DNA from: Malacoraja senta
Lineage: Eukaryota
Length of the DNA: 64,000 nt
Direction: 5' to 3'
NCBI GenBank assembly: GCA_038087875.1
Contig: CM075990.1
Coordinates: 2,606,001 to 2,670,000, forward strand
Under the pieces are notes generated by a model that had not been told where the DNA came from, searched no databases, and saw only the letters and a program-made list of their open reading frames with translations. A program made the translations under genes and the position numbers. Position 1 is the stretch's first letter. Each line of letters starts with the position of its first letter. This document shows positions 1,140 to 64,000 of the stretch, piece by piece.

Positions 1140-2680
1140 CTGAGGAATGGTTGTTGGAATTTAATACTGAAAAATGTGAGGTGTTGCATTTCGGTAGACT
1201 AAAATTGGCAGGACCTACACAGTGAAAGGTAGGGCAGAAGGATTTCAGAGCGCAGGTACAGTACATAGTTCGTTGCAAATTACATCGCTGGTTGACAGAG
1301 TGGTCAAAAAGGCTTTTGGCACATTGGCCTTCATCAGTCAGAGTATTGAGTATAGAAGTTTGGATGTCATGTTGCAGTTGTATGTTGGTGAGGCTGCATC
1401 TAGAGTGTGGTCTTCAATTCATGCACTATGTTATAGGAAAGATGTTGTCAAGTTGGAAAAGTCAAGATGTTGTCAAGTTGTCCGTAGTCGGTGGGGGCGC
1501 TGCGAGCCGGCAGCCCTAGCAGCAGCGTGTTCGTTTTTTCTACTTTTTTTGTTTTTTTAGTGTGTCTTAATGTATGTTTTTAATGTCTCTTGGTGTGTCT
1601 TGTGTGGGGGGTGGTGTGGGGGGGGGGTAAGGGGGAAACCGTTTCAGCCGCCTCCTCCACGGAGAGCTCCAGCTGGCGGTGTCCTGGGCCTGGGATCCCT
1701 TGTTGGGGACCCGGAAGGAGAAGAGCTCCAACTGCCGGATCGCGGCCTACTTCTACCGCGGGCGCAGCGGGGACTTACCATCCGGAGACCCCTTGAGTGG
1801 AGCTTCGACTGCCGGCCCTGCGGTCTGCGGTGCTTCTGGCTGCGGGGACTTTAAATCTTCGACCGCCGGCCTGCGGCCAACACCATCTTGAAGCCGCGGT
1901 CTCCGGTGGGGAGGCACCGATTCAGGACTTACCTGGACTTACCTTGTCTGAACATCTGGACGCCCGCAGCGGCGGCTGCGGAGGGTTAATGTCCCGACCA
2001 CGGGGGAAAATGGAGGAGGACTGGCCAATTTTTGTGCCTTCCACCACAGTGATGAATGCTGTGGTGGATGTTTGTGTTAAATTATTATCGTGTATTGTGT
2101 GTTCTTTTTTCATTGTACCGCTGCTGGCAAATTCATTTCACTTGCACTTTATGTGCAAGTGACGAATAAAACTTGACTTGACTTGAAAAGGTGCAGAGAA
2201 GATTTACGAGGATGTTGCCAGGACTTGAGGGCCTGCGCTACAGGAAGAGATTGAGCAGGCCAGGTTTCTATTCCTTGGAGTGCAGGAGGAAGAGGCGTGA
2301 TCTTAAAGAGGTGTACAAAATCAAGAGAGTAATAGATCGGGTAGACGCACACAGTCTCTTGCCCAGAGTAGGGGAATCAAGAACCAGAGGACATAGGTTC
2401 AAGGTGAAGGGGAAAAGATTTAATAGGAATCTGTGGGCTAACCTTTTCACACAAAGGATGGTGGGTGCATGGAACAAGCTGCCAGAGGAGGTAGTTGAGG
2501 CAGGGACTATTGCAATGTGTAAGAAACATTTAGACAGGTACATGGATAGGACAGGTTTAGAGGGATATGGGCTAAACGCCAATAGGCAGGTGGGACTAGT
2601 GTAGCTGGGACATGTCGGCCGTTGTGGGCAAGTTGGGCAGAAGGGCCTGTTTCCATGCTGTATCACTCTATGACATAATG
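1140..2680 (+). mobile_element. Degraded CR1 (HER1-like) LINE 3' region interrupted by a retroposon at ~1461-2186
   Basis: Translations DRVVKKAFGTLAFISQSIEYRS.. and QRRFTRMLPGLEGL..RTRGHRFKV..FTQRMVGAWNKLP match CR1 ORF2 C-terminus; reading continues across the insert (KDVVKLEK|VQRRFTR). Confidence 0.9.
1481..2186 (+). mobile_element. GC-rich structured non-autonomous retroposon, copy B, (ACTTG)n tail
   Basis: T tract, G run + GGGGGAAAC, GC-rich body, core hairpin 2040-2068, AATAAA plus microsatellite tail; inserted in CR1. Confidence 0.75.
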
Positions 2681-6409: not shown

Positions 6410-6610
6410 GTTATTCCAGAGTAATCCTTGAAGGTAGAGGATCAAAGGGGATGGGGGGGGGGGGGGGGCAGGGGGAGCAAAGGAGACACATCTCAATGCA
6501 ACGTTTCCCAGTCAATATGTATGGAACGGTGCAGCACAAGAACAGGAACAGAGACTGAAAATTGTAACATCCAGGTTCAGGAACAGCTACTTCCCTACAA
6601 CCATCAGGCT

Positions 6611-7108
6611 TAGAGTTGCCAACTGTCCCGTATTGGCTGGGACATGCCGTATTTTGGGCTAAATTGGTTTGTCCCATACGGGACCGCCCTTGCCCTGTAT
6701 TTGACTGCTACTACTCGGGTCGAGGGGACTGTCGGGTCGGAGCGCCGCGTCCGGCCCCGCCTCATCCGTCCCGACGTAGTGCAGCCCATGGAGTGCAGCA
6801 GCAGCGCATCGCCCGTGGCCCCGTCGGTCGGCAGCCCGACCATCCCGTACCGCCGACACCACCACCCCTTCTTCTCACGGCCAATCATCGGTTCATGAGT
6901 TGGATGGGGTGCCGGACTTTACGCGCGATGTCGCACGGGCCAAAACTCCTCAGCTGGCCCGCCGGCTGGGCTTTGTGTGCAGTCCAGCACCCGGGCCAAC
7001 ATCATTCACCCAGCCACAGCCCAGTCTGTCAACGAATTGCCGTCGGGAATTTGTCCCTTATTTTGACCTTTTGTCCCTTATTTGGGAGTGAGAACATTGG
7101 CAACCCTA
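6611..7108 (+). mobile_element. Non-autonomous hAT DNA transposon (Blackjack-like termini), 498 bp
   Basis: TIRs TAGAGTTGCCAA / TTGGCAACCCTA; perfect 8-bp TSD ATCAGGCT at 6603-6610 and 7109-7116; subterminal TGTCCC/GGGAC motifs; splits a Rex1 fragment. Confidence 0.9.
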
Positions 7109-8515: not shown

Positions 8516-8833
8516 TTCCATAAGAGGCGCTGGTCCATGTACAGGAAGTGTCCAGCATTCTTCACCACACTCTGCCAGCTTACCCTTTCCCTTTCTCATG
8601 CCTATCTATTGTCTGTTCCATTTGCCAAGGCCAGTCAAATGGATGATAACAAATGTAATGTTTTCACCAAAGATAGACACTAAGTGCTGGAGTAACTCAG
8701 CGGGTCAGGCAGCATCTCTGGAGAAAAAGGATGAGTGACGTTTTGGATCCGGACCCTTCTTCAGACTGAAAGTAGGGAATGGAAGGGGGGGGGAGGGGAG
8801 GGGGGCGGTGGTGAAGTGCTGTAGATGAGAAAA

Positions 8834-9865
8834 TAATAATAATAATAATAATAGATTTTATTTAAGGGCGCCTATACAAAGGTCTCAAGGACACCTTACA
8901 AAATTTAACAAAGAAACATATAATCAGAGTAAAATAAGTTATAAAGACATCACCAATACATAAATTAAAGACAGAAGTTCGATCCAAAATAGACAACAAC
9001 AAAATTCAGAAACACAATGTGAAGGGAGAGCAGCGGCAGCCAAACCGCGCCAGCGTCCACTCTCCCTTCCGACCGCCATCTTGGACATAGACTAACATAG
9101 ACACTACACATTACACACAAAATCATCCCCCCGCAATGGTCACCACTATGGGGGAAGGCACAATGTCCAGTCCTCAACCCCAGTTCTCCCCAAAGTCAGG
9201 CCTATTGAGGCCTCCACAGGTGCCTCTACGGAGGCCCGGAGTTCCTGGCCGTTCTCGCCGGGTGCCATTGCCCCGGCGTCGGGAGAGTCCTCACAGCGGC
9301 TGGGACGGCTGGAACGGCCGATTCCCTACCGGAGTCCGTGGCACCTGAAGCCGACAAGGCCGCGCCGATTTGGAGCTCTGAGGCTCCCGATGTTAAAGTC
9401 GGCGCCGCCGCCCGCGGCTGGCCGCTCCGCAGACCCGCAGCCCGGAGGTGTTGAGCTCGGCGGTCACAGCTCACCGGAGCTCCAGCGCGTCGATCCAGCG
9501 CGGCGACCCAGGCAAGGCATCGCCCGCTCCGCTCCACGATAGCGCTCCAGCACTGTGCCGCCACCGAAGCTGAAGGTGCTGGGGAGTCCCCGCCAGGAAA
9601 CGCCGCTCCAGGCCTGCTGGTAGGCCGCGAGGACGGGTCGACGGGGCAGCCCGGAGAAAAAGCTGCCTCACCGACCAGGTAGGGACCTAGAAATAGTTTC
9701 CCCCATTACCCCCCCACAAGAAAAGTCAAATTCCCCAGCAAACATAGACAGACACAGTTAACTAAAAACTAAAGAAAAAAGTGAAATTAACGGACGGCTG
9801 CTGGTTAGCTGGTTAGCAGCCGTTCCCCAAGATGGCTCCTCCTACATCTACCATCCTCCTACCAT
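8834..9865 (-). mobile_element. GC-rich structured non-autonomous retroposon, copy A1 (full length), (TAT)n tail
   Basis: TSD TGAGAAAA at 8826-8833 and 9866-9873; homologous to 38011-38386 and 63543-64000; hairpins at 9636-9676 and 9126-9155. Confidence 0.85.
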
Positions 9866-16554: not shown

Positions 16555-17742
16555 CACAAAAATGCTGGAGAAACTCAGCGGGTGCAGCAGCATCTATGGA
16601 GCGAAGGAAATAGGCAACGTTTCGGGCCAAAACTCTTCTTCAGACTGATAGGGGGTGGGGAGAAGAAAGGAAAAAAGGAAAAAGGCGGAGGAGGAGCCCG
16701 AGGGCTGGGGGAGGGGAGGAGACAACTAGAGGGCTGATGAAGGGGAGGGGACAGCAAGGGCTAGCAGAATTGGGAGAATTCAATGTTCAAGCCCCCAGGA
16801 TGCAGACTGCCCAAGCGGAATATGAGGTGCATTTCCTCCAATTTACGGTGTTGCTCGCTGAGGCCATGGAGGAGACCCAGGACAGAGAGGTCAGATACGG
16901 AATGGGAGGGGGAGTTGAAGTGCTGAGCCACCGGGAGGTCAGGTTGGCCATCGCGGACCGACCGGAGGTGTTCGGCGAAACGATCGCCAAGCCTCCGCTT
17001 GGTCTCACCGATGTAGATCAGCTGGCATCTAGAGCAGCGGATGCAATAGATGAGGTTGGAGGAGATGCAGGTGAACCTCTGTCGCACATGGAATGACTGC
17101 TTGGGTCCTTGAATGGAGACGAGGAGGGAGGTGAAGGGACAAGTGTTGCAAGGGTAAGTACCAGGGGAGGGGGTGGTATGGGAGGGAAGGGAAGAATTGA
17201 CAAGGGAGTTACGGAGGGAGCGGTCTTTGCGGAAGGCAGACATGGGGGGAGATGGGAAGATGTGGCGAGTGGTGGGGTCACGTTGGAGGTGGCGAAACTG
17301 ACGGAGGATCACTTGTTGTATGTGACGGCTGGTGGGGTGAAAGGCGAGGACTAGGGGGACTCTGCCCTTGTTGTGAGTGGGGGGATGGGGAGAGAGAGCA
17401 GTGTTGCGGGGTATGGCAGAGACCCTGGTGCGAGCCTCATCTATGGTGGAGGAGGGGAACCCCCGTTCCCTGAAGAATGAGGACATTTCAGATGCCCTGG
17501 TGTGGAACGCCTCATCCTGGGAGCAGATGCGGCGTAGACGGAGGAATTGGGAGTGGGGGATGGACTCCTTACAGGAAGCAGGGTGGGAAGAAGTTTAGTC
17601 CAGATAGCCATGGGAGTCGGTGAGTTTGTAGTGGATGTCGGTAAGGAGTCTATCACCTTCGATGGAGATAGTGAGGTCAAGGAATGGGAGGGAGGTGTCG
17701 GAAATGGTCCAGGTGTATTTGAGTGCCGGATGGAAGTAGGTT
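16555..17742 (-). mobile_element. 5'-truncated Penelope-like retroelement (RT thumb, Cys linker, GIY-YIG endonuclease, LTR)
   Basis: 14-bp TSD AAGGTTTGTAGGTT at 16541-16554 and 17743-17756 inside a SINE; coding similarity from ~17735 to 16761; hammerhead motif 16616-16643. Confidence 0.95.
16761..17486 (-). pseudogene. Penelope-like GIY-YIG endonuclease domain, open 241-codon C-terminal fragment
   Basis: FTCISSNLIYCIRCSRCQLIYIGETKRRLGDRFAEH..PVAQHFN..EMHLIFRLGSLHPGGLN; upstream RT mostly missing. Confidence 0.9.
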
Positions 17743-18918: not shown

Positions 18919-19429
18919 TCGGGTTTCCAACTTTCTCACTCCCAAATAAGGGACAAAAGGTCAAAATAAGAGACTAATTCCCAACGGCAATTCGTTGACC
19001 GACTTGGCCGTGGCTGGGTGAATGATGAGTTGGCCCGGGTGCTGGATTGCACACAAAGCCCAGCCGGCGGGCCAGCTGAGGAGTTTTGGTCCGCGCGACG
19101 TCACACGCAAAGTCCGGCACCCCATCCAACTCATGAACCGATGATCGGCCATGAGAAGGTGGTGTCGGCGGTAAGCGAAGGTCCGAAGGTCGGACAGCTG
19201 GCCGGGCTGCCGACCGACGGGGCCACTGGCGAGGTGCTGCTGCTGCATTCCATGGGCTGCACTACGTCGGGACGGTGAGGCGGGGCCCGACGCAGTGCCC
19301 CGACCCGACAGTCCCCTCGACCCGAGTAGTAGCAGTCAAATATGGGACAAGGGTGGTCCCGTATGGGACAAACCAATTTAGCCTAATATACGGGATGTCC
19401 CGGCTAATATGGGACAGTTGGCAACCCTA
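18919..19429 (-). mobile_element. Non-autonomous hAT transposon, second copy, inverted relative to 6611-7108
   Basis: Reverse-complement match along its length; TSD ATCCACAC (18911-18918) / ATCCATAC (19430-19437). Confidence 0.9.
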
Positions 19430-19682
19430 ATCCATACCAGCACTATTCACTCCGAATAAGTGATTGTCCACATGTCAAAGTCATAGACCCTGGGGGCCGA
19501 GGTGGACGGGCCACGTTGCGGAAAACAAAGGTGGCCCCGGCATGGGGGGGGGGGGGGGCACTGAGAACAAGAGAGGGGAGGGACAAAGAGGGGACCAACA
19601 ATATTTAAGGGTACCTTTGTAATTTTGTTGGCACCTTGTGGCGACTGTTTTGTGCACTGTGTATGCTGAAACAAAGAATTAA

Positions 19683-26142: not shown

Positions 26143-26425
26143 TCACAATCACAATCACAGTAATACTTTATTAGCCAAGTATGTTTTGCAACATACGAGG
26201 AATTTCATTTGCCAAGTCAGTCGTACAAATAAAAAGCAACGGAACACACAAAATACATTTCAACGTAAACATCCACCACAGTGACTCCTCCACATTCCTC
26301 ACTGTGATGGAAGGCAAAAAAAAGTTCAATCTCTTCCCTTTGTTCTCCCGTGGTCGGGGGCTTCGAGCCCTCTGTTGACGGGATGATCTTGACTCCCGTA
26401 GCCGGTGGCGGGCCTGCTGCCTTTT
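26143..26425 (-). mobile_element. GC-rich structured retroposon, copy F (5'-truncated), (GTGATT)n tail
   Basis: CCCCGACCACGGGAGAAC motif, core hairpin 26272-26311, tail resembling the Rex1 tails at 42620-42697 and 52155-52210. Confidence 0.75.
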
Positions 26426-33879: not shown

Positions 33880-35428
33880 AACGTCCAGCGGGGCCTGTAG
33901 ACTTTAACATCGGAAGCCTCGGTCTCTGGTAAGAAGCGGCCGATTCGGGAACTCCAAGCCGCAGAGTGTGTTCCGATCCATCCAGATGTCAGAGTTTCGA
34001 TCATCCCGGCGAGAGGGCCTGTACATCGGGCCGTCCGTAGTGGCGACTGTGGATGCTTCTAGGCCCCAACCACGGGTGAACAAAGGAGGAAGATTGACTG
34101 AACTTTATTGCCTTCCATCACAATGAGAAATGTCGATTCCACTGTGGTGGATGTTTATGTTAAATTCTATTGTGTATTGTGTTCTTTTTATTCGTATGGC
34201 TGTATGGTAACTCAATAGACAATAGTGGAGGAGTAGGTCATTTGGCCCTTTGACCTAGCACCGGCATTCAATGTGATCATGGCTGATCATCCTCAATCAG
34301 TACCCCGTTCCTGCCTTCTCCCCATGTCCCCTGACTCCGCTATCTTTAAGAGCCCTATCTAGCTCTCTCTTGAAAGTACCCAGAGAACCGGCCTCCACTG
34401 CCCTCTGAGGCAGAGAATTCCACAGACTCACAACTCTCTGTGAGAAAAAGTGTTTCCTCGTCTCCGTTCTAAATGGCTTACCCCTTATTCTTAAACTGTG
34501 AGCCCTGGTTCTGGACTCCCCCAACATCGGGAACATGGTTTCCTGCCTCTAGCGTGTCCAAGCCCTTAACAATCTTATATGTTTCAATAAGATACCATCT
34601 CATCCTTCTAAACTCCAGAGTGTACAAGCCCAGCTGCTCCATTCTCTCAGCATATGACAGTCCTGTCATCCCGGGAATTAACCTTGTAAACCTACGCTGC
34701 ACTCCCTCAATACCAAGAATGTCCTTCCTCAAATTAGGGGTCCAAAACTGCACACAATACTCCAGGTGTGGTCTCACTAGGGCCCTATACAACTGCAGAA
34801 GGACCTCTTTGCTCCTATACTCGACTCCTCTTGTTATAAATCCAACATGCCATTCACTTTCTTCACTGCCTGTTGTACCTGCATGCTTACTTTCATAGAC
34901 TGATGAACAAGGACCCTCAGATCCCATTGTACTTCCCTTTTTCACAACGTGACGCCATTTAGATGGTAATCTGCCTTCCTGTTTTTGATACCAAAGTGGA
35001 TAACCTCACATTTATTCACACTAAACTTCATCTGCCATGCATCTGCCCACTAACCCAACGTGTCCAAGTCACCCTGCATTCTCATAGCATCCTCCTCACA
35101 GTTCACACTGCCATCCAGCTTTGTGTCATCTGCAAATTTGCTAATGTTACTTTGAATCCCTTCATCCAAATCATTGATGTATATTGTAAATAGCTGCGGT
35201 CCCAGCACCGAGCCTTGCGGTACCCCACTAGTCACTGCCTGCCATTCTGAAAGGGACCTGTTGATCCCCACTCTTTGTTTCCTGTCTGCCAACCAATTTT
35301 CTAGCCATGTCAGCACTCTACCCCCAATACCATGTGCCCTAATTTTGCCCACTAATCTCCTATGTGGGACCTTATCAAATTTCACTGTACCAATTGGTGC
35401 GTGACAATAAATGTGAACTTGAACTTGA
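33880..35428 (+). mobile_element. GC-rich structured retroposon, copy E, split by a CR1
   Basis: Core hairpin 34114-34151; tail TTCACTGTACC..GTGACAATAAA..(ACTTGA)n resumes at ~35376 after the CR1. Confidence 0.7.
34215..35380 (-). mobile_element. 5'-truncated CR1 LINE with RT domain
   Basis: FDKVPHRRL..SGVPQGSVLGPQLFTIYINDL..KFADDTKL; same subfamily as 30061-31636. Confidence 0.95.
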
Positions 35429-38010: not shown

Positions 38011-38386
38011 CTCCGTAGAGGCAACTGTGGAGGCCTCAATAGGCCTGACTTTGGGTGAACTGGGGTTGGGGACTGGACATTGTGCCTTCCCCCACAGTGG
38101 TAATCATTGTGGGGGGATGATTTTTGTGTGTAAATGATATTTTATTTTATGTCCAAGATGGCTGCCGGAAGGAGGGTGGACGCTGGTGCGCTTTATCAGC
38201 CGCTGCTCTCTCTTCCATATTGTGTTTTTGATTTTTGTTTTTGGATTGAATTCTCTCTTTAATTTGTGTACTCGTGATGTCTTTATTATTTATTTCATTC
38301 CGCTTACATGTTTCTACTATTTGTTAAACTTAAAAGGTGTCCTTGAGACTTTTGAAAGGCGCCCATAAATAAAATGTATTATTATT
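38011..38386 (+). mobile_element. GC-rich structured retroposon, copy A2 (5'-truncated)
   Basis: Homologous to 8834-9230; core hairpin 38088-38117; AAATAAAATG(TAT)n tail. Confidence 0.85.
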
Positions 38387-38970: not shown

Positions 38971-39129
38971 TTATAAAAGTGCATAAGGTCATGAGGGGAA
39001 TAGAGTGAGTGAGTGAGAGAAAGTGTGTGTGTGTGTGCATATGGTCAATTGTTCTTCATTATCACATGTACAAACATACAGTGAAACTCTTTTTCTTACA
39101 TGCAGTTCGGTAAAGTATTGCCATACCTA

Positions 39130-39565
39130 AGCACAACCCCTGATTAGCCCAAAGTGCGTAGAAATCGTCCACGGAGGCCGCGTGCATGAGTCGCCAGGTT
39201 TTTGCGTCATTTCCAAAGTCCAGTCCGGTCCGCGCGCCCGGTCTCCTGTAGCGGGTCCTGATCCAGGCGAGCCCCAGGCTGCTGCAGGGCCTCCAGCCGT
39301 CGCCTCCGTCTGGAACGTCCAGCAAACCGGCGTCCCTCTCCTCGCCCGGCCGCCTGCAGCCCTTGTGGCCCGGGGAGGGAGGGGAGCCTCCCGCAGCCCA
39401 CCGTGAGGCCGCAGAAGGAAGGTGATACCCAGGTTCACTCTCCTACTGGCGATTGTTCTTGTGTCCATCGGCACCCTCCGTCCTCCTCTCCGGTTCTCCG
39501 GTGCTCGGGAGACGAGCAGGGGCCGGCTCGGCATTCCTTCCTTCTGGCCACGTGGCTCACCGATC
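39130..39565 (-). mobile_element. Probable degraded Tx1-like LINE C-terminal fragment
   Basis: GC-rich; terminal peptide ..HAASVDDFYALWANQGLC resembles Tx1 ORF2 ends; frameshifted. Confidence 0.45.
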
Positions 39566-42338: not shown

Positions 42339-42776
42339 GAGGTCTAAGGAAATGAAAGGCACCTGTTTAGGCACATTAAAATACAAGATTCCAGCATTTG
42401 CACTCGTTTGAGAAACCGCTGCCTGGACATTTAGTAGAAGGCAAGATCTTCAGTGCTAAGTGGCATTGAATAGCTCATCCCTGTGGAAAAACCATCAGAG
42501 CATCCTACATCACAGTTATTTAATTCACATGTTTAACCGATAATGTTTTATTGTTAATGTTTAATGTTTTATGTGTCATTCCAACTGTCACTGTATGTCA
42601 TGTTGTCACTTGCGGGCAGAGCACCAAGGCAAATTCCTTGTATGTGAATACTTGGCCAATAAAGTTATTCATTCATTCATTCATTCATTCATTCATTTAG
42701 TGAGCAGCGTAGACTGAGGCCTGGGTCTAGGAGGGAGTGTTGAAGATAGGAAGGTTTAGAACAGCCACTGTCCAAT

Positions 42777-43542
42777 AGGGGCGCTGCATTGAAGGCGCCT
42801 CTGCCTACAGCCTGTCCGTTTTTTCTATATTTTTTTAATTTTAGTTTGTCTAAACAGTTTTGGGGATACTTTAGTTTTTCTATGTGGGGGAGGGGGGGAG
42901 GGTAAGGGGGAAACCGTTTCCCAGTCGCTTCCTGGCGAGGACGCGACTATTTCTCCAAGTCGCGTCCTCCCCCCCACCTCGCGGCCTACCACTGGTTCGG
43001 AGCAGTCTTTCCTACCAGAGACCGGGGCCCGGACCAGAGCTTCGGCAGCAGCGGCGCGGCGCTGGATTCACCACGGAGCAGGCGGTGCCTTCCTGGATCG
43101 CCGTATGAGGCTCCGGAGCGTTGGGCGGTGCTGACTCCAACATCGCGTAGTCCCTGGGGCCCTTTGCAGAGGGCCGCCAGCGTTGAATCTCCGCCTGTGG
43201 ACGTCGTGAGCCGCGGAATCCGGTGGGAAGCGGCCGTTTTGGAGGTCCAAGCCGCTGTGGTTGGCCTCCCGTTCGGAGTTCCAACATCCCGGCGAGCGGG
43301 CCTGAGCGGCGGGCTGCCCGTAGCGGCGACTGCAGAGGGCTCCGGAGGCCCCGACCACGGGTGAACATGAAAGGAAGATGACTGACTTTGGTGCCTTCCC
43401 TCACAGTGGGAAACTTTTAATTCTGTTGTGTGGGGATGTTTTATGTTGAACTCTATCGTGTGTTGTATTCTTTATTTTTATTGTATTGCTGTATGGTGAT
43501 CAACTGGCACGTGACAAATAAATGTATCTTGTATCTTGTGTC
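42777..43542 (+). mobile_element. GC-rich structured retroposon, copy C (full length), (TATCTTG)n tail
   Basis: Head CCTACAGCCTGTCCGT, T tract, GGGGGAAAC, perfect 12-bp hairpin 42937-42969, core 43397-43436. Confidence 0.8.
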
Positions 43543-43664
43543 TGGTGAGATTGGACCAAGGAGACACAAGGTTCAATGGCTCTTTTATTTTCGCATGTAC
43601 AAACGCACAATGAAATCATTTTCTTACATTCATACCTGTAGAGTGTTGCCATACCCAAGCACAT

Positions 43665-52154: not shown

Positions 52155-52634
52155 TTGAATGAATAAGTTTATTGGCCAAGTATGTACACATACAAGGAAT
52201 TTGCCTTGGTGCTCCGCTCGCAAGTAACAACACGACATACAGTAAACAATTAAGAATAAAACATAAAACATTAAACATTAAGAATAAAACATTATAGTTT
52301 AAACATGTGAATGAAATAAAATACCAGGGCAAAAGGAGGCTACAGACTTTTGGTTATTCAGTAGAGCTACTGCTCGTGGAAAAAAGCTGTTTTTATGTCT
52401 GGCTGTGGCGGGTTTGACAGTCTGGAGTCGCCTTCCGGTGGGAAGTGATTCAAAGAGTTTGTGGCCACGGTGAGAGGGGTCAGAGATGATCTTACGCGCT
52501 CGCTTCCTGGCCCTTGCAGTGTATAGTTCGTCAATAGTGGGAAGGTTGCAGCCAACAACCTTCTCAGCTGATCGAACGATTCGCTGCAGCCCTCCGGATG
52601 TCGTGCTTGGAGGCTGAGCCAAACCAGACCATAA
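52155..52634 (-). mobile_element. Rex1/Babar LINE 3' end, (TTCA)n-tail subfamily
   Basis: LQRIVRSAEKVVGCNLP..SDPSHRGHKLFESLPTGRR..RHKNSFFPRAV. Confidence 0.9.
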
Positions 52635-57290: not shown

Positions 57291-58153
57291 AGTGCGACGG
57301 CGCGGATTACTGCCGCGGCCCCTACAGCCTGTCTGTCTTTTTTTAATTTTTGTCTAGTTAAATGTAGTTGTTTGTGTTTTTTTAATACTGATTTTAACTG
57401 TGTATATGTGGGGGCGGGGGGGGGAGGGGGAAACTTTAAAAAATCTCTTCCCTGCACGGGAGACCCGACCTTTTCCCTGTCGGGTCTCCGTTGTCGTTGG
57501 GGCCTAGCTCCGTGGAGCGGCCTCCGACCGGGACGACCTGGGGGCTCCAGTCGCGGAGCCTGTGGAGCTGCGGACTTACCATCGTGGGGCTGGCCGGCCT
57601 CGGAGCGTGGGGAGCGGTGGTGGCTCGCTGCTGCGGCCCGACTCCGGAGCTCCAGCTGCAGACCTGTGGACTATGATATCGGGAGCTCGCGGGTCCGGGT
57701 GAGAGACTGCTTTCCGGAGCTCCCGCAACGCAACTTCTCCCGCCCGTGTCGCGGGGTTGGAACGACCCGAAGCGGGGCCGTAAATCGCCCGGCGCGGCTT
57801 TAATGGCCGCAGGACATTCCAGCGCCTGCCGGGGGCTCCAACTTTGTGACTTTTGGGCCGGAGCGAGGCCGTACACCGGCAGGCGCGGCCTTGAATGGCC
57901 GTGGGACTTAACATTGCCCGCCTGGGGCTTCAACATCGGGAGAAAAATGGTGCAGGGGAGAGAAAAGACTTTGCCTTCCATCACAGTGAGGAGGAGATTC
58001 ACTGTGATGGATGTTTTTCTGTAAATTGAATTGTTTGTGTGTCTTGTAGGAATTGTTTTGTTTGTATGGCTGTGGAAACGGAGTTTCGTTTGAGCCTCTT
58101 TGAGGTACAAATGACAAGAAATAAAATCTAATCTAATCTAATCTAATCTAATC
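57291..58153 (+). mobile_element. GC-rich structured retroposon, copy D (full length), (ATCTA)n tail
   Basis: Head CCTACAGCCTGTCTGT, T tract, GGGGGAAAC, perfect 11-bp hairpin 57459-57489, perfect 13-bp core hairpin 57977-58011. Confidence 0.8.
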
Positions 58154-63542: not shown

Positions 63543-64000
63543 TAGGAGGAGGAGCCATCTTGGGGGAACGGCTGCTAACCAGCAGCTGTCCGTTAAATTC
63601 ACTTTTTTTTTTAGTTTTTAGTGAATTCTGTCTATGTTTGCTGGGGAATTTGACTTTTCATGTGGGGGGGTAATGGGGGAAACTATTTTCTAGGTCCCTA
63701 CCTGGTCGGTGAGGCAGCTTTTTCTCCGGGCTGTCCCGTCGGCCCGTCCTTGCGGCCTACCAGCGGGCCTGGAGCGGCGTTCCCTGGCGGGGACCGCCCA
63801 GCACCTTCAGCTTCGGTGGCGGCACAGCGCTGGAGCGCTATCGCGGAGTGGAGCGGGCGATGCATTGCCTGGGTCGCCGCGCTGGATCGACGCGCTGGAG
63901 CTCCAGTGAGCTGTGACCGGCGAGTTCAACACCTCCGGGCTGCGGGACTGCGGAGCGGCCAGCCGCGGGCGGCGGCACCGACTCTAACATCGGGAGCCTC
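63543..64000 (+). mobile_element. GC-rich structured retroposon, copy A3 (5' half, cut by window end)
   Basis: Close reverse-complement match to 9385-9845. Confidence 0.85.

Follow-up and report, generated by a model that had tools for sequence, protein, structure and literature searches.

The window, a 64,000-nt stretch of a 1.94 Gb genome, consists mostly of LINE and SINE fragments, and no host gene was seen in it; the repeat content suggests the genome of a cartilaginous fish. On its plus strand, a full-length copy of a GC-rich non-coding retroposon occupies exactly 57291-58153, nested in a CR1 3′ fragment and without a target duplication. Elements of this kind begin with a GC-rich head of 45-50 bases, followed by a T-rich tract, a G-tract ending in GGGGGAAAC, hairpin A, the motif GGCCTA and a CpG-rich body; 3′ of the body stand hairpin B, a T-rich spacer, a LINE tail, AATAAA and a microsatellite. 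The head of the focal copy, a putative internal Pol II promoter, lies at 57291-57337, the T-rich tract (longest T-run 7) at 57338-57406 and the G-tract at 57407-57434. Hairpin A (57456-57491), which covaries between families, has an 11-14 bp stem and a pyrimidine loop. GGCCTA and the GC/CpG-rich non-coding body extend over 57499-57973 with degenerate repeated ACATC/CTTACC units and a 77-base internal duplication, and hairpin B (CCTTCC...GGATG, 57974-58013) is the domain with the highest sequence conservation. The Rex1-type 3′ tail (58084-58153) comprises a TTTCG stem-loop TGAC segment at 58084-58115, AATAAA at 58120-58125 and (ATCTA)n at 58126-58153.

Seven further copies had been named by the sequence-only reading, and inspection of the window finds all eight in place, on the strands given. 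An F1 copy with a Rex1-type tail (1488-2186, plus strand; identified by family search and profile) and an F6 copy (42776-43542, plus strand), whose family has a CTCF-like motif at its 5′ end and a Rex1-type tail, were previously listed as 1481-2186 and 42777-43542, and both have internal deletions relative to their own families. A full-length F2 copy with an L2-type tail (8834-9843, minus strand) is flanked by an 8-base target duplication, the TGAGAAAA repeat claimed earlier, present at 8826 and 9866. The copies at 26143-26425 (minus strand), with a tail resembling the Rex1 tail at window ~52170-52200, and at 33880-35428 (plus strand), with a Rex1-type tail into which an antisense CR1 fragment of ~1.16 kb (34216-35379) has inserted, are both 5′-truncated, as is an F2-like copy with an L2-type tail at 38011-38386 (plus strand). 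The last, an F2 copy at 63545-64000 (plus strand), is cut by the window end, and its L2-type tail lies in the next stretch (L119). CCCGACCACGGG, described earlier as a usual motif of the elements, is absent from the focal family and from F2.

Other repeats share the window with these copies. Two GC-rich repeats of ~500 bases, at 6607-7108 (plus strand) and 18921-19433 (minus strand), are 88% identical and have TAGGGTTGCCAAC-like inverted ends, and are likely copies of a non-autonomous DNA transposon. A fragment of Penelope type, whose match to GIY-YIG is weak (E 3e-4), lies at 16761-17594 on the minus strand. A second, unrelated GC-rich non-coding repeat with a Rex1-type tail occurs at 38990-39450 (minus strand) and 43573-43663, and again in the L119-L128 stretch and at L141; it is possibly another independent parasite of Rex1.

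A profile of 16 family bodies matched exactly the eight copies in the window, with E values from 1e-124 to 1e-17, and no others. When the focal clade was held out, the remaining profile still matched the focal copy at E 3e-21. In the opposite direction, a profile of the focal clade alone matched five of the seven other copies at E ≤ 2e-4 (one at 0.16 in a second piece) and gave no match to two F2-type copies (38011 and the 8834/63543 type); the reversed window, as a control, gave 0 matches in both hold-out tests. Pairwise alignment among the window copies is strongest at the head and G-tract and at the 3′ hairpin. These results uphold the earlier claim of homology, but not the description of the bodies as aligning poorly, since identity is 58-77% between the window families and 72-86% between neighbouring families. 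Whole-body identity among the 16 families ranges from 0.43 to 0.93 with a median of 0.58 (shuffled 0.43-0.56).

Used as queries, four of the window copies each retrieved a dispersed family of their own, at identities of 94-96% for F7 (the focal family, with 39 other copies in the genome), 90-95% for F2, 77-88% for F6 and 87-91% for F1; these searches kept the best 40 candidates per query, with a bias towards full-length, young copies. In F7, 32 of 40 matches begin within 4 bases of the 5′ end, which is therefore sharp, and the copies end in an (ATCTA)n tail. Median divergence from the consensus is 2.2, 3.1, 4.7 and 6.3% in sets of 30, 20, 15 and 14 best-matching copies. The lineage had been called old, and it is indeed diverse, but at 2-6% median divergence its families are young. 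A 22-base pattern for hairpin B has 11,681 exact matches in the genome versus 0 for the reversed pattern, and it recovers 7 of 21 profile matches in unselected DNA, which corresponds to ~35,000 copies. A sample of twenty 10 kb stretches at even spacing (200 kb) contains 5 hairpin matches, with 0 in shuffles, for an estimate of ~49,000 with a wide error; core bodies span 2.9 of 200 kb of evenly spaced DNA. Because the 11,681 pattern matches stand against 0 in the control, we place the superfamily at roughly 35,000-50,000 copies in many families. Related sequence is also present in sequencing runs from several different organisms, with related families in the contig runs X1, X3 and X17. Parts of the stretch itself were found in 22 sequencing-run rows from 10 studies, with no RNA run among the matches listed, and a metagenome scan with the hairpin B pattern returned 0 matches.

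The sequence-only reading had proposed non-autonomous, LINE-driven retroposition, and the dispersal, the 5′ truncations, the LINE-like tails and the microsatellite ends that we observe bear this out. A crude motif scan finds the head region intact in 13 of 31 pattern-picked copies, the remainder being 5′-truncated in appearance or missed by the scan. Target duplications of at least 7 bases are rare, with 5 among 65 scored copies against control fractions of 0.007-0.07, and regular target-site duplication was accordingly rejected as a family trait. At L142, near 9200, an F1 element starts directly behind a Rex1 tail, and L078 holds two F2 copies in tandem; given these two cases, the elements may prefer existing tails as insertion sites.

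The elements encode no reverse transcriptase or other conserved protein. A hidden ORF in the body was considered and rejected: of 146 indels that separate the families, only 20 have a length divisible by 3, four long element ORFs have no Pfam match, and tblastn detects no LINE-protein similarity inside the bodies, in agreement with the earlier statement that coding similarity is absent. A conserved ORF1, the criterion for ORF1-only LINEs of the HAL1/HeT-A type, is absent from the elements, and none of the 52 copies that were read has an ORF 3′ of the element. The bodies are instead rich in short repeated units, with ACATC units occurring 23 times versus 2.4 in shuffles and the CTTACC motif, which reads as a splice donor in antisense, 17 times versus 3.4. 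Their CpG observed/expected ratio is 0.78-1.11 versus 0.51 in random DNA.

We assign the names Rex1, L2 and CR1 to the LINEs of this genome from features typical of these clades. The assignments are consistent with the Pfam results and with a published account which describes Rex1 elements without ORF1 as most abundant in rays among others, and chondrichthyan L2 elements as also lacking ORF1 (PMC13343379). The partner LINEs encode a reverse transcriptase according to Pfam and reside in the same genome as the elements; a search with PF09004, a Rex1-associated domain, returned 39,055 candidates, with intact single frames of ~1,000 aa. Some of these LINEs have unusual N-termini. The start of the Rex1 ORF is hydrophobic and signal-peptide-like (highest hydropathy over 15 residues 2.3-2.9 in 4 of 5 scored; the 5′ ends with the hydrophobic stretch are L193, L199, L200 and L207), followed by a conserved Y-x-R-x-x-L-L, which would be an odd beginning for an ORF1-less retrotransposon protein. 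Expanding GC-rich tandem repeats are seen in the N-terminal linker of the ORF at L203, L209 and L210 (Rex1) and at L235 (L2).

The Rex1 3′ ends here have the form TTTCGTT-stem-AATGACAATAAA-microsatellite, which the focal tail shares. Read by eye, 21 unselected copies divide into 18 with Rex1-type and 3 with L2-type tails, and 31 copies picked with the hairpin pattern, which cannot catch F2, have 30 Rex1-type tails and 1 broken one. The tail of the L192 family scores 68 against the L2 tail of L065 (best shuffle 39), that of L183 scores 58 against Rex1 L039 (best shuffle 32), and the tail at window 26373 scores 48 against the Rex1 at window ~52200 (best shuffle 32). About 10 of 31 tails score no higher than the best shuffle, some of them through no real tail having been parsed, and among the LINE tails compared none belongs to an autonomous LINE with exactly the tail of the focal family. 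The element 3′ ends are of the partner-LINE kind at the level of tail type, not of exact family, and the earlier LINE-driven reading can be sharpened to Rex1-type partners in most families and L2-type partners in some.

A tree of 17 long rows places two L2-tailed families as sisters, which suggested a single origin of the L2 tail. This was rejected once truncated relatives were added: in the resulting 21-row tree the nearest kin of F2 (L036 and one neighbour copy) are Rex1-tailed, and the three L2-tailed rows, a group named beforehand and with two rows under half filled, are rejected as a clade (AU p=0.0009). F2 elements also have an extra distal module after hairpin B, from 9084 on the minus strand in the window copy, which consists of another AAGATGGCG head and a T-rich tract that leads into the L2 tail, and in 1 of 20 sampled cases (L233) this module lies behind the hairpin B of another family. 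As none of the 20 sampled matches (20 of 744) stands alone, the module was rejected as a free-standing element. Since the L2-tailed rows do not form a clade and the module recurs at L233, the L2 tail was either gained more than once or gained and lost. It occurs on at least two separate body lineages.

In the Rex1 elements here, which begin with AAGATGGCG, no more than a few bases precede the ORF, and a T-rich stretch comes next. The head of the L187 family is identical to the 5′ end of Rex1 L207 in 49 of 67 columns, a likeness not attained in any of 300 block shuffles; 9 of the 180 head-Rex1 pairs compared are at this level. A profile of 12 heads matched none of the Rex1 5′ ends tested, and the focal head aligns poorly with L207 (score 19). 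The likeness resides mostly in a 14-base promoter-like motif and T-rich DNA, and could be convergent; weighing these comparisons, we lean slightly towards a head derived from the 5′ end of a Rex1 element. Related heads in other families start with motifs resembling YY1, ETS or CTCF sites; such motifs are present in only 9 of the 24 heads that were scored, the focal head having none. A CTCF-like motif stands at the very start of 4 of the 24 (F6, L143, L169 and L182), and if these motifs are bound, the four families would spread insulator sites. For the body, no match was found in 9 long LINE loci, one of them a CR1 that bears ORF1 and was searched together with the region upstream of it, or in 3 L2 upstream stretches. 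One L2 family was followed to its start: of 39 other matches, 17 share a first base located 4 bases ahead of the ATG, and none begins earlier. The body would thus be a foreign middle that matches none of the LINE regions sampled, namely these 9 loci, the 3 L2 upstream stretches and the start of the one L2 family.

No tRNA gene is present in the window. Rfam gave no match in the window or within elements (E≤5 at 4 loci and E≤2 at 6 loci), and in the same 10 loci no segment derived from 7SL, 5S or 28S rRNA was found within elements. In the flank of one element (L070:521-584, plus strand), outside the element itself, there is a match to a CPEB3/HDV-like ribozyme core (E 1.7e-5, 28.5 bits, against a gathering score of 35). 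Bodies scanned from the G-tract on contain 2 B-boxes versus 1.8 in shuffles and 2 A-boxes versus 5.0, and the heads were searched by eye, so the earlier remark that tRNA A/B boxes are lacking holds for both genes and box counts. A U1-derived segment, prompted by the CTTACC motifs, was rejected against the genome's own U1: none of 16 bodies beat all 60 shuffles (best 3/60), and no Rfam U1 or U2 match was found. The longest T-run is 4-13 in all 16 families and lies 50-120 bases from the start. T-runs of this length would stop Pol III. Pol III is therefore disfavoured, because such runs follow the first ~50 bases in every family.

With no tRNA-type start, production by Pol II is likely, and transcription probably begins in the head. 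In the polyA RNA run X23, 15,453 of 7,335,232 reads align to the focal copy at 85% likeness; 88% of the aligned reads run on unlike the focal copy, so that most come from related families, and the organism of the run may not be this species. Summed depth is ~32,450 for first mates on the minus strand versus 4,005 on the plus, or ~8:1, the strand being uncalibrated by a control gene. In most stranded libraries a first mate on the minus strand denotes sense RNA. The X23 RNA is thus sense-biased at about 8:1, with read-through from host genes a possible source, and neither a spliced joint nor a start site is among the features listed for the run.

In 12 family representatives, 90.7% of the hairpin A cells are paired versus 81.1% after shuffling (0/500), with double changes at 9 of 14 pairs and only 41-55% pairing in slid controls; the shuffle ignores relatedness, which inflates the result, and the structure was drawn from the same sequences. 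On the sense strand G-U outnumbers A-C by 23 to 5, an excess suggestive of folding in the sense RNA. Hairpin B is 97.5% paired with double changes at only 1 of 8 pairs, and is conserved mainly at the sequence level. The folding energy of the focal RNA is lower than that of any of 20 shuffles (z -6.2). The tail stems vary in sequence, yet 21 of 24 parsed tails fold better than shuffles, the 3 failures being two L2 tails and one mis-parsed row. The sequence-only reading had placed RNA structure rather than sequence under selection. Hairpin A and the tail stems agree with the structural part of that claim and hairpin B does not, and the contrast itself fails, as bodies that align at 58-77% make the superfamily homologous in sequence as well.

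We consider it likely that these elements are SINE-superfamily-like, probably Pol II-transcribed parasites of ORF1-less Rex1 and L2 LINEs. Pol II would initiate in the head, the tail stem would be bound in trans by the Rex1 or L2 protein, as the tails suggest, and copies would be inserted by target-primed reverse transcription, mostly without target duplication. Partner changes could come about through template switching or fusion. The most speculative step concerns hairpins A and B, which may act as tail-independent RNA signals bound by a host factor that keeps the intronless non-coding transcript stable, exported and near newly made LINE protein; the hairpins may survive partner changes because of such binding. 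A more far-reaching version is tentative, and we hold it doubtful as a whole. In it, the elements would form a Pol II equivalent of the SINE superfamilies that has not been described before. The promoter at the 5′ end of a Rex1 element, together with a Rex1 tail, would have given rise to it, dozens of families active side by side would account for 1.5-2% of the genome, and jumps between Rex1 and L2 enzymes would have occurred repeatedly. The hairpins would attract a host factor that hands the RNA to newly made LINE protein without ORF1, a way past cis preference other than that of Alu.

Three other explanations were weighed. The conserved parts could act as DNA, as a CpG-island promoter or factor sites, with the hairpins as palindrome by-products and an RNA that needs its tail only. 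The raised CpG ratio of the bodies, the promoter-like motifs in some heads and the conservation of hairpin B in sequence more than in pairing all speak for this account, but the pairing of hairpin A is kept through double changes, and its 23:5 excess of G-U over A-C is that of an RNA stem and not of a DNA palindrome, so that we regard a DNA function as unlikely. It is more improbable still that the elements arose simply by internal deletion, as bipartite derivatives of an unsampled LINE whose long 5′ UTR supplied the whole head and body. The heads do resemble Rex1 5′ ends, the distal module of F2 resembles the 5′ end of a LINE fused to the tail of an L2, and in some CR1-group elements that lack ORF1, repeat arrays are described close to the 5′ UTR (PMC13343379). 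Against this, Rex1 and the one L2 family that was followed start their ORF almost at the 5′ end, the body is missing from all LINE loci and L2 upstream stretches searched, no copy read has an ORF behind it, and one body carries the tails of two LINE clades. Least probable of all is a true SINE whose small-RNA head has decayed heavily or whose Pol III promoter lies upstream, in other words a superfamily of the HCD type, transcribed by Pol III, that has escaped recognition. A shared central domain with exchanged tails is a hallmark of SINE superfamilies (PMC5786205), and the 5′ ends are sharp, but the elements match no tRNA, 5S, 7SL or snRNA (U1 likeness in the 16 bodies does not exceed shuffles), have T-runs of 4-13 in all 16 families, and at 0.6-1 kb are long for a SINE. 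As LINE parasites probably made by Pol II, the elements would place Rex1 among the few LINEs that yield Pol II non-coding parasites, and with young families and intact single-ORF Rex1 partners (~1,000 aa) at hand, the role of the conserved body is directly testable. Tens of thousands of CpG-rich transcribed copies also bear on repeat annotation and on the reading of regulatory DNA.

The open-literature listings and abstracts searched contained no description of these elements, and we think this is a real, abundant feature that is probably undescribed as a superfamily; some consensuses very probably sit unnamed in automated repeat libraries. Among known composites, SVA is a long GC-rich non-coding element with a repeat-like middle that is mobilised in trans by L1; it consists of Alu- and ERV-derived segments, and its copies have a polyA tail and target duplications. 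The elements here are similarly long, GC-rich and non-coding, but the L1, polyA, Alu and ERV traits are not seen in them. For the ORF-less bipartite LINEs (RIME, NARTc, Bov-A and RTESINE), a 2018 account names only RTE, Ingi, Vingi and R2 as sources (PMC5786205). They too have no small-RNA head, a LINE 3′ tail, presumed Pol II transcription and a head possibly from a LINE 5′ end (PMC5786205), whereas the partners here are Rex1 and L2, the ~500-650 bases of body are non-LINE, and the body has changed partner clade. Bird SINEs, with GC-rich heads on bipartite RTE sequence, likewise join a GC-rich non-Pol III front to a LINE tail, but they have an RTE partner and comprise two families, and the parts of the accounts considered here report no superfamily-level diversity or tail switching (PMC7245038, PMC5786205). 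SINE2-5_NV with its Rex1-24_NV tail shows that non-autonomous elements can be mobilised through a tail of the Rex1 kind; it differs in its tRNA head and its sea anemone host (PMC3747384).

The likeness to SINEs lies in the central domain. The literature on the CORE, V, Deu, Ceph and Meta superfamilies describes such a domain across divergent families with exchangeable LINE tails and some L2 partners (PMC5499810), as in our elements. It gives HCD SINEs tRNA or 5S heads with A/B boxes and lengths under ~500 bases, whereas the elements here have no boxes and contain internal T-runs; the cartilaginous-fish families HE1, SacSINE1 and CmiSINE, from sharks and chimaera, also have tRNA heads (PMC5499810). 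The elements behave like an HCD-type SINE superfamily and also like bipartite non-autonomous LINEs, yet are strictly neither, because they combine the lack of a Pol III head with a large foreign middle. Few non-coding retroposons have been successful without a small-RNA head of the Pol III kind, and neither where the conserved middle domains of SINEs come from nor what they do has been settled (PMC5786205). The elements described here retain a conserved and covarying middle in the absence of a head of this kind, and do so across two LINE clades.
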